In this document: one piece after another, positions 15,001 through 17,858 of the stretch
Position numbering within the stretch: position 1 is the first letter of the stretch
How the letters are laid out: each line of letters opens with the position of its first letter
UHGV virus genome: UHGV-1727747
Strand: one strand, 5' to 3'
Length of the DNA: 17,858 nt
From: a virus
Position numbers: made by a program

Positions 15001-17858
15001 ATATTCACCCGTCGGGTATTCAGTGTTTTGATTCTGCTCTGGAGTGTACGAAGCTCAGCCATGTAAAATCCCCGTCATATGGCAATCAGTAAAGGAAATA
15101 AATATGTCATCGAAAAACCGGACCCGCAGAACCACAACCCGCAATATCCGTTTCCCCAATCACATAATTGAACAGATCAACATCGCCCTTGAGCATAAAG
15201 GGTCCGGTAACTTTTCAGCGTGGGTTATTGAAGCCTGCAGGAGAAGGCTGGCAACAGATGCAACGCATCTGCGCCCGGCCAGCATGACAAATAACGAGAA
15301 ATGAACGTTCGGTTTCTTCCACCATCGCACCGGACAGGCGACTATGAGGGGACAACGCCGCGCTCCGTTAACGCGGTAAACCCCGGTGTGTATCGTTTTT
15401 GATTATCCCCGCACACTCGCGCAGAGGAGTCTCCCTGTCGGGCTGCGGTCTCTGTTAATGCAGGAATACGGCGACAATACCGCGCATGGATAATAAGGTC
15501 GCTCAACACACTGGCTGTAATACCATGCGGCATTTAGCGGCATTCATCGTACACTCCACGGTTAGCTCTTCATTCGTGGCATTCACCTGAAAGGTCCGGG
15601 AGTGTAATTGCGTACATTTACCACTGAACGAACCTTCAACAAGAACACGACCACGCTGCAAAATACGGAACGGAATTGTTCCCTGAAAAGGTTCTACGGT
15701 TACCCGTAATTTCTTCATGTATCCTCCGGATAATAAAAAGCCAGCTTAGTGCACTGAGTGCGGATATATTCCTGCGCCCCTTCCAGCTGCTTCTGCATTG
15801 TCATCAACCGTTCTCTGAGGATGAAATAATCCCGTTCAGCGGTGTCTGCCAGTCGGGGGCCGGTTGCATTATCCACGCTGGAGGTGCCGGTGGCTTCACG
15901 CACGGTACCGGGGCAGGTGGCGTTGACCCGCAGGCGCTTACGACCAGCGGCAACATCAGCGCGCAGAGTTTCATTTTCAGCTCTCGCATCGGCTAATTCC
16001 TTCGTGTATCTGGCATCAAGCGCAGCGACATCTCGCTGGCGCTGCTGCATGTCAGTAATAGTGGCATTCGCCAGTTTCAGCTCACTGACTTTTTTATCGC
16101 GCTGCGCTTTGTAGGTGATGGCGTTATCGCGGTAATGATTCAGCCCCAGACTAAGCACACCACAGGCTACCAGCATGACAATAATCACCACACACAGAAC
16201 ACGGTTCATATCACCACCAACGGATTGCCCAGACCAGAACAGCAATGGCCACAATACGAATGGCAAATGCCATTGCCCGAATAAGTTCAGCACTCATCTT
16301 TTTAAAGTTCACGATTTCAGCGCAATGACCAGTTTTGCCAGCCCATACAGCATCGGAGACACAGCAATACCAACAGCCACCCACTTAATAGCAAAAGCCA
16401 GCGCTCTGCTGATGTCATCAGTCACTGTCACCCCAGCAGCCCCGACGAAGACAACATCACCCAGGCGAGGGACAGAAAAAGAGCAACCAGCATTAGTGAA
16501 AATGAAATACCGACAATCACACACAGGACCTTTGCCGGCGTTATGAGTTTGTCTGACATAGCTACCCCTTAATTGCCACAATTAACTGGGATACTACCCA
16601 TAAAAAAGGGATGCTCCAGACCAGCAAAAATTTCCAGTTTGGTAATTGACTAATCATGAGTCGCAACTCCCTAATCAGTTTGCTAAAATCAATCAAGGCA
16701 GCCTCCCATAGCTTACTGCCATAAAAACAAAACCCCGCTTGCTGCCAACAAACGGGGTTTTTACTTTTATTCACTTAGGTTTTGCCAGTTCACAGGACTT
16801 CGTGTTATCCGCCCGCGTTGGCCAACCTCATTTTTCAGCAAAATATTCTGCTTATCTGTCGATTCCCCAGCACGCCAGCGCGCTCTCCTGGTCACGACGG
16901 AATACCTGACCGTAACAGTTATTTGAGCGAATACGGCAGTCTCTGCCACCGTCCTTAATCCACCAGCGAATCGCTTCGCATGCTCCCCTGCGATCACCTG
17001 CATTAATTCGTCTGTAAAACGTCGACGGGAAACACTTACCGGGACCAATGTTGTACGGACAGAATGACGCGATCCCCGCTTTCTGGGGTTCGGTCAATGG
17101 CACTTTGATGTTTTTCTCCACCCATGCCAGCGCCTTATCACGCTCAATGGCGTTAACCCGGTCGCATTTTTCCTTCGACAACTTCATGCCCGGAACGACA
17201 GGTTTGCCATCCACCAGGATGGCACCGCGGCAGATGGTCCAGATACCCGCGCCATCACGGTATGCCGTGGTGTGGTTACCTTCCTTTTCATCCAGAAACT
17301 GGTCGAGAATGTCAGGCGCAGGCGCACCAGCGGCAATCAGCGCCAGAACGGCAGCCGACAGGCCGTATCTGATTTTTGCGTTCATGGATATTTATCAGGA
17401 TTTATCGGTTTCTGAGCCCTGGATATGTTTATCAGTTCCAGCCTGTTGCCTCAGGCTGCTAACAGGTCAATACAATCATGAGGATTATTTATGGACAATA
17501 ACACCATTTCTCTACAGGAGTTGCTCGACAGCATTTCCAGGCTTCGGGAAGACGTGAATACCCTTACCGTCGCCTTCTCATATCTGGCATTCTCAATTCC
17601 AAGGGAACAGATGCAATCAACGCTGGCATCAATCCAGTTTGAATCATGCAATCCCAAATGGTCTCAGGAACAACAAGACTCTTTCAGGCGGCTTGCTGTA
17701 TTACTGGATGAAAAATATGCTGGTAAAATTACCATTTCGGCGGACTCTTCAGAGAACCCGTAATTATTCCCGGTAGTTTTCCTCTGTAGGTTATCAACAC
17801 ATCCTGCGCCTCTAAAATTACGGGGCGCTTTTCCGGCGACTGCTCATCCCCTTCACAT

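Follow-up and report, generated by a model that had tools for sequence, protein, structure and literature searches.

Gene X, a probable moron read against the lysis genes of a lambdoid Escherichia coli prophage

Introduction

Why does a lambdoid prophage carry a small open reading frame (ORF) in the middle of its lysis genes and on the strand opposite to them? The question is raised by the right end of a stretch of 17,858 nucleotides (nt), called the window here, of the virus genome UHGV-1727747. This end is occupied by the lysis genes of a lambdoid E. coli prophage, which run on the minus strand. The ORF in question, which lies at 17491..17763 on the plus strand and faces away from the endolysin gene, was named X. 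An initial annotation had described X as a self-contained, regulated moron standing where a holin would be expected, with a repeat-rich spacer before it and perhaps a role in anti-defence or lysogenic conversion.

The answer that we favour is that X is probably a moron, that is, a small gene with its own candidate transcription signals, situated on the opposite strand between a YdfR-family gene and a signal-arrest-release (SAR) endolysin gene. The moron concept is reportedly due to Juhala and Hendrix. A lambdoid prophage moron is an ordinary kind of feature, and the protein family of X is an uncharacterised one.

Gene X and its product

The gene was defined as follows by profile match, annotation, selection and structure model.

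17491..17763, plus strand: gene X, encoding a 90-amino-acid (aa) acidic three-helix protein (WP_000369850.1, phrog_2411)

It was found that X matches family phrog_2411 over its entire length (residues 1-90 on profile positions 1-90 of 90, E 1.1e-58) and is the same protein as RefSeq WP_000369850.1, which carries the annotation "hypothetical protein"; X is annotated in GenBank as well. A sequence search gave 62 close homologs in Escherichia, Shigella and Citrobacter (58-100% identity, 83-90 aa), and profile searches enlarged the family to 239 homologs of 87-97 aa, down to ~25% identity and with no internal gaps; the family occurs across Enterobacterales, its wider members coming from Serratia, Sodalis, Pantoea, Erwinia, Winslowiella, Mixta and Chimaeribacter, among others. 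When X was compared with the Citrobacter copy, the differences at codon positions 1, 2 and 3 were 23, 21 and 48, respectively, and in five comparisons the ratio of nonsynonymous to synonymous substitution rates (dN/dS) of the plus frame was 0.12-0.31, with zero stop codons in any relative. The ATG, the Shine-Dalgarno sequence and the length are kept down to ~25% identity and across unrelated genomic contexts. Judged by this purifying selection and this deep family of homologs, the plus-strand ORF of the initial annotation is a genuine protein-coding gene.

Among the E. coli copies, frameshifts or truncations of X are also fairly common (P0061, P0041, P0045 and P0039), one frameshifted copy having the legacy name 'ybl58', which indicates that X also decays in some lineages.

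The product has a mass of ~10 kDa and, as had been noted, is acidic (isoelectric point, pI, 4.5); it contains no hydrophobic or transmembrane segment. An AlphaFold2 model made with 78 aligned homologs (predicted local distance difference test, pLDDT, 82.9; predicted template modelling score, pTM, 0.61) consists of three helices (residues 8-35, 38-52 and 59-76), with residues 81-90 as a disordered tail, and the protein is thus predicted to be an acidic, soluble, cytoplasmic three-helix protein. The conserved core extends from residue 1 to ~80, with the hydrophobic positions L11, I15, L25, A28, F29, L32, F34, F65, L68 and A69, and the other conserved positions E10, E51, N54 and Q62.

Homology searching and structure prediction supplied a family and a three-helix model, and no characterised relative. 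Neither X nor its distant homologs gave anything above noise in Pfam, NCBIfam and PADLOC. The best weak matches, to the 'Mip' model over 15 residues (13.7 bits) and, equally weakly, to phrog_10887, were both rejected as noise, and at E <= 1 there was no PADLOC match for X, two homologs or YdfR. A profile search of solved structures matched only YibL, at E 0.17 and in a coiled-coil-like alignment; fold comparison of X gave no informative match; and hhalign comparison of the X family with BssS and Hha gave probabilities of 0.1-0.2% and showed no relation. An Rfam search of 15000..17858 at E <= 1 found nothing, and literature searches on ybl58, WP_000369850, YdfR with holin and endolysin, DUF1327 and lysis-cassette moron found nothing relevant. 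The X family is accordingly an uncharacterised one, having no name, no Pfam family and no assigned function.

A cassette present or absent between ydfR and the endolysin gene

The immediate surroundings of X are made up of the following features, identified by the evidence given in brackets.

16852..17385, minus strand: SAR-type phage lysozyme (rrrQ-like endolysin), divergent from X (Pfam Phage_lysozyme 9e-24, phrog_7, annotation)
17383..17385, minus strand: endolysin start codon, CAT as written on the plus strand (sequence)
~17427..17737, no strand: present/absent cassette of ~311 bp, comprising the X upstream region and codons 1-82 (pairwise and multiple alignments, GC content)
17729..17858, minus strand: 3' part (last 130 nt) of a YdfR-family gene that encodes 114 aa in full and leaves the window at the right (annotation of identical records, translation)

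From 16700 to 17858, the window has 100% identity with Escherichia phage vB_EcoS-783R2 and with many E. coli chromosomes. The gene order in these identical records is antiterminator Q, a methyltransferase gene and tRNAs, IraM, a SASA esterase, a class II holin (71 aa), the YdfR-family gene (114 aa), an opposite-strand 'hypothetical protein' (X), the lysozyme gene rrrQ, small ORFs, and Rz. The lysis cassette is phage-21-like, with a pinholin-type holin, YdfR, endolysin and Rz/Rz1. The class II holin gene is two genes upstream on the minus strand, just past the right edge of the window. Beyond that edge, where the initial annotation had proposed to look for a holin gene and Q, both are present in the identical records; the position of X is not that of the holin. 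X also lacks the properties that define a holin, a transmembrane segment and location on the endolysin strand: its maximal 19-residue hydropathy is 0.75, its grand average of hydropathy (GRAVY) is -0.43, its pI is 4.5, and it is encoded on the opposite strand. X was thus excluded as a holin.

The DNA that separates ydfR from the endolysin gene differs between related phages. The Stx2a phage Stx2_EH2201 has the same cassette of holin, YdfR and SAR lysozyme, whereas its YdfR-endolysin spacer is only 50 bp and contains no X. Window positions 17380..17426 match this spacer at 42 of 47 nt, and positions 17738..17858 match the ydfR 3' end of Stx2_EH2201 at 112 of 121 nt, so that the two share the repeat-bearing spacer (described below) and the ydfR 3' end; between these homologous flanks there are ~311 bp in the window as opposed to 18 bp in Stx2_EH2201. 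In the Qin prophage of E. coli K-12, which has the same type of cassette, ydfR overlaps rrrQ by 4 nt with no X between them, and no X homolog was present in the Qin lysis cassette (the dinI-bssS locus of K-12, a kind of locus considered below, is outside that reading). The GC content is 43.6% in the cassette, 55.1% in the endolysin gene and 56.2% in the window. Two properties by which a moron is recognised, presence or absence between genes that are adjacent in related phages and a base composition unlike that of the neighbours, are therefore found here, and the proposal that X is a self-contained insert is supported.

X and ydfR are convergent, and their 3' ends share 35 bp (17729..17763). 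SADSSENP and the stop, the last nine codons of X, are the antisense of C-terminal codons of ydfR, in DNA that is also present in Stx2_EH2201, and the cassette in its turn supplies the last two codons and stop of ydfR (KW-stop, compared to LA-stop). Such a borrowed tail of X agrees with the disorder of the tail in the model, its lack of conservation in distant homologs, and the end of the Citrobacter protein at 83 aa.

Transcription and translation signals of X

The candidate signals of X are listed here; two were identified by folding, as indicated, and the others by sequence.

17439..17458, no strand: inverted repeat CAGCCTG-TTGCCT-CAGGCTG, the loop of which is the candidate -35 (folding and sequence)
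17446..17476, plus strand: candidate sigma-70 promoter, TTGCCT (17446..17451), 19 nt, TACAAT (17471..17476)
17480..17484, plus strand: Shine-Dalgarno sequence GAGGA, 6 nt before the X ATG and kept in alleles
17806..17834, plus strand: candidate intrinsic terminator of X, with a 7-bp stem, a 9-nt loop and UUUUCC (hairpin 17806..17828), within ydfR and antisense to it (folding)

Two E. coli allele classes were compared, and the identities between them across the locus were as follows.

16852..17385, endolysin gene overall: 85%
~17292..17385, endolysin 5' end: ~95%; 40-nt windows from 17292 to 17411 match at 37, 39 and 40 of 40 nt, the last one entering the spacer
17386..17429, repeat spacer: 97.7%
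17430..17490, X upstream: 73.8%
17491..17736, X coding: 87.8%
17737..17858, ydfR part: 92.6%

The two hexamers and the good ribosome-binding site of the initial annotation are thus present upstream of X, with the hexamers separated by 19 nt. The candidate promoter is TTGAAT-19-TACAAT in the 82% allele, and a 72% paralog (L101) has TATAAT at the -10 position; the occurrence of TACAAT, TACAAT and TATAAT in three lineages makes the -10 the best-supported promoter element. No LexA box was found by eye upstream of X in the window or in Serratia, the only LexA box being the one that precedes dinI.

The dyads were found where they had been described. AGCCTG (17440..17445) and CAGGCT (17452..17457) are part of the 7-bp stem at 17439..17458, and CCTGTT (17442..17447) and AACAGG (17461..17466) form a second, overlapping dyad. 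The hairpin 17439..17458 has a folding energy of -12 kcal/mol on either strand (z -1.7), and because 13 of 200 shuffled sequences fold as well, it is on its own not beyond chance. The 82% allele retains the 5-bp hairpin core GCCTG/CAGGC and has lost the second dyad; the hairpin is gone from L101. An insertion sequence of the IS3 family, ISEc52, is found in some E. coli strains at window position ~17461, between the hairpin and the -10 (L106 260..1429, L107 1544..2713), where it splits holin-YdfR-X from the endolysin gene or leaves the endolysin gene alone; such prophages are presumably lysis-defective.

The candidate terminator has a folding energy of -12.3 kcal/mol on the strand of X; the hairpin read on the minus strand is less stable and is not followed by a U run, and the value for the Stx2 phage that lacks X is -6.3. 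A terminator scan misses the 17806..17828 hairpin because of the loop and T-run limits of the scan. After the Citrobacter X there is a strong hairpin followed by U5 (-18 kcal/mol, z -3.8).

Distribution and contexts of X homologs

X was found in 1221 of 5426 complete E. coli genomes (~22%). The matching E. coli records comprise 535 at an identity of at least 99%, 602 at 80-90% and 86 more distant paralogs, and nearly all E. coli copies are annotated 'hypothetical protein' next to 'YdfR family protein', i.e., they stand beside a YdfR-family gene. In IMG/VR, the phage-borne copies found were of the E. coli type only, as they were in a second scan with distant homologs.

In Citrobacter meridianamericanus, a 60%-identical X is located in a prophage beside an unrelated holin gene (112 aa), a different endolysin gene and Rz/Rz1, where it is divergent from the lysis genes and runs convergently towards its other neighbour. 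Comparison of the two arrangements indicates that the X unit moves between lysis cassettes. Two HicAB-like ORFs, identified by eye, are near the Citrobacter X.

A second kind of context is chromosomal. In Serratia marcescens, Winslowiella and Mixta a homolog occupies the conserved locus pyrC-dinI-X-bssS-solA, and these homologs, of an unannotated family, have the following locations.

L085: 5001..5282
L086-L089: 5001..5276
L103 and L104: 4001..4276

These proteins (87-97 aa) resemble X in length and in gapless alignment at 25-35% identity, and share with it the conserved AFSYLAF, ES.N and Q..F..LA positions. A conserved intrinsic terminator follows dinI ahead of the X homolog, which is therefore its own transcription unit. 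Unlike X, these genes are syntenic in chromosomes and have no phage context. This synteny, shared by three genera of two families, argues for a role in host physiology rather than a role in lysis or one specific to the phage. X homologs are at other loci in Sodalis and in a metagenomic organism.

E. coli paralogs of ~60-65% protein identity were found on islands, on an IncF plasmid and, in one case, beside iha. The paralogs in L092, L098 and L100 (E. coli islands and the IncF plasmid pWY517IncF) are 89-92 aa and ~60% identical; each lies downstream of an AIDA/pertactin-type autotransporter gene of the same strand, at a distance of ~300 bp, and is followed by an AraC/GyrI-like regulator gene. 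The copy beside iha (L101 3709..4450, E. coli VTB96933v) is in a decayed ydfR-X-endolysin fragment, of which X (WP_000370415.1, ~72% nt identity) is intact, with the ydfR 3' end and the first endolysin codons surviving only as remnants. The intact copy suggests that X may be retained for its own sake.

Discussion

The reading that we consider probable, that X is a moron, would operate as follows. X would be read rightwards from a weak sigma-70-type promoter, TTGCCT-19-TACAAT, translated from the GAGGA Shine-Dalgarno sequence, and its transcription would end within ydfR, at the one-directional hairpin terminator. X lies antisense to the late transcript, which depends on Q, and so cannot be expressed from that transcript; it would be made only while the late operon is silent, i.e., in the lysogen, and after induction convergent late transcription would shut it off. 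The protein would most probably bind a host protein that is conserved across Enterobacterales and would have no part in lysis.

Several points weigh against this interpretation. Expression in the lysogen and the late shut-off are inferred from the orientation of X. A consensus promoter scan with 16-18 nt spacers calls nothing upstream of X, since the hexamers are 19 nt apart; the predicted transcription start would coincide with the Shine-Dalgarno sequence or come just behind it; and the upstream segment 17430..17490 is, at 73.8%, the least conserved of the locus. The terminator hairpin of the window folds no better than shuffled sequences (z -1.5) and has only four U. The presence or absence of the cassette may reflect either insertion here or deletion in the Stx2 phages. 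Finally, the function of X is wholly inferred, with no informative match of sequence or fold.

As a moron, X is similar to other lambdoid morons in being an extra gene between genes that are adjacent in relatives, with a lower GC content than its neighbours, and in having its own candidate promoter and terminator, an orientation opposite to late transcription, and expected expression in the lysogen. It differs from them in its location inside the lysis cassette, between the YdfR and endolysin genes, rather than after Rz or between Q and S, and in a 3' end that overlaps the neighbouring gene and takes its last 9 codons from the antisense strand of that gene. The classic late-region gene transcribed against the late operon is lambda bor. 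Bor is an outer-membrane lipoprotein, whereas the X protein is predicted to be cytoplasmic and is functionally uncharacterised.

An unlikely alternative is that X controls lysis, either through a protein that regulates the holin or endolysin, or through its transcription in cis, which, by its antisense or convergent course, would restrain leaky expression of the ydfR, holin or endolysin gene in the lysogen. It is consistent with this idea that phage-borne X always adjoins lysis genes in antisense orientation, in two unrelated cassettes (the E. coli SAR-lysozyme type and that of Citrobacter), and that the X mRNA, which overlaps ydfR by 35 bp, has full complementarity to the late transcript in the interval from ydfR to the endolysin gene. 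However, the amino-acid sequence of X is strongly constrained, the protein has no membrane segment, homologs occur at non-phage chromosomal loci without lysis genes, and hundreds of related phages function without X. In lambdoid and Stx phages, a general moron hot spot lies between Q and the lysis genes, and the Citrobacter X adjoins the HicAB-like ORFs.

A second alternative concerns the repeats in the spacer, which, together with the dyads, might be operator sites for a repressor or activator of X; we regard this as improbable. The spacer of 105 bp from the endolysin start codon to the ATG at 17491 is present (17386..17490), as the initial annotation had it. Of its two direct repeats, copy 1 is GGATATTTATCAG at 17386..17398, and the second copy is GGATATGTTTATCAG at 17421..17435 rather than at 17432..17446. 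The repeat-bearing features are as follows.

17386..17429, no strand: repeat-bearing spacer, with TTTATCAG at 17391, TTTATCGG at 17401 and the first 2 nt of the third TTTATCRG copy (sequence, conservation)
17421..17435, plus strand: repeat copy GGATATGTTTATCAG, which holds the third TTTATCRG (17428..17435) and straddles the left edge of the cassette (sequence, alignments)

TTTATCRG has three matches in the window (17391, 17401 and 17428), all within 45 bp, as compared to ~0.7 expected, and the cluster is therefore non-random; the other short repeat families of the region are at chance level. This clustering, the overlap of the inverted repeat with the candidate -35, and the retention of the TTTATC cores in the 72% paralog L101 are what operators of X might show. 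L101 was rejected as an independent, non-phage context for the repeats, being a decayed fragment of the same phage arrangement.

The distribution of the repeats argues for a different assignment. The Stx2 phage without X also has TTTATCRG copies 1 and 2 and CCCTGGATAT, and copies 1 and 2 are within the block that is conserved with the endolysin 5' end, the spacer being 97.7% conserved in comparison to 73.8% for the promoter segment. The repeats are thus not specific to X. In addition, the 82% allele lacks the second dyad, L101 lacks the hairpin, and neither repeats nor hairpin are recognisable upstream of the Citrobacter X. Occurrence in a phage without X and conservation with the endolysin 5' end place the repeats in the endolysin leader rather than in an operator of X; by position and conservation, the repeats by the endolysin start are the leader of the endolysin on the late minus-strand mRNA, just 5' of the AUG. 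When folded as late-mRNA RNA, this leader was no better than shuffled sequences (z -0.8 and -0.6). The endolysin start has no recognisable Shine-Dalgarno sequence and is 343 nt from the ydfR stop, and the leader and 5' coding end are the most conserved block between the allele classes (97-100%). Fur, CpxR, PhoP, DnaA and IHF sites were compared by eye with the TTTATC repeats; none fits well, and no claim is made.

It is about as doubtful that X is anti-defence or superinfection-exclusion cargo, i.e., a small acidic inhibitor of a host or competitor system. The product is indeed small, acidic and helical, its gene is a moron that some related prophages carry and others do not, and its paralogs are on islands and an IncF plasmid. 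Against this, X has no PADLOC match, a negative that counts for little because the library consists of defence systems and not of anti-defence proteins; X resembles no characterised protein in sequence or fold; and the distant homologs, syntenic in chromosomes of three genera and two families, point to a host physiological role. The role in anti-defence or lysogenic conversion that had been suggested is therefore unsupported, with evidence neither way.

There is also only a slim chance that X is a lysogeny-specific switch, namely a regulator captured from the dinI/bssS neighbourhood of a host and placed antisense in the lysis operon, the protein of which would tune a conserved host stress, SOS or biofilm factor while convergent transcription would lock the lysis genes until Q-driven transcription turns it off. 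If this were so, the intact X in the decayed fragment beside iha would reflect host selection.

The last alternative, that the plus-strand ORF is spurious and that the spacer is non-coding and regulatory or the minus-strand ORF 17451..17657 (68 aa) is the product, has next to no probability and is already refuted by the sequence comparisons given above: although the minus frame also has a low apparent dN/dS (0.16-0.24), which is the usual artefact because an antisense frame shares wobble positions, this ORF has a TTG start and no PHROG or Pfam match and is cut by stops at different places in different relatives, whereas the plus frame is open throughout.

Other features of the lysis region

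The remaining features of the late region lie to the left of the endolysin gene, with one exception upstream of the holin gene.

15715..16293 and 15804..15989, minus strand: Rz/Rz1 (family searches)
16309..16581 and 16562..16774, minus strand: small ORFs between the endolysin gene and Rz, for which RefSeq calls shorter versions
16729..16761, both strands: strong 15-bp hairpin flanked by a T run on each side, resembling a bidirectional terminator
15104..15304, plus strand: YlcI/YnfO (DUF3950) gene, between Rz and HNH/terminase

One of the small ORFs is a full-length phrog_3246 (E 4e-59) and another matches phrog_6632, both families being functionally uncharacterised. The hairpin at 16729..16761 is ~90 bp past the endolysin stop, within the lysis cassette and before the small ORFs and Rz, and late transcription would therefore need Q antitermination to pass it. 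The YlcI/YnfO gene is a second opposite-strand gene of the late region, and a third is IraM, upstream of the holin gene (L001 9859..10194).

Significance

The map of this lysis cassette is corrected in two respects: the holin gene is elsewhere, and the repeats belong to the endolysin leader. About one-fifth of the complete E. coli genomes carry X, including ST131-type strains and the BL21 derivative Rosetta2(DE3); the allele present in BL21 is the 85% one. A genuine gene, with probable expression in the lysogen and chromosomal relatives at the dinI-bssS locus, provides a starting point for the function of X.

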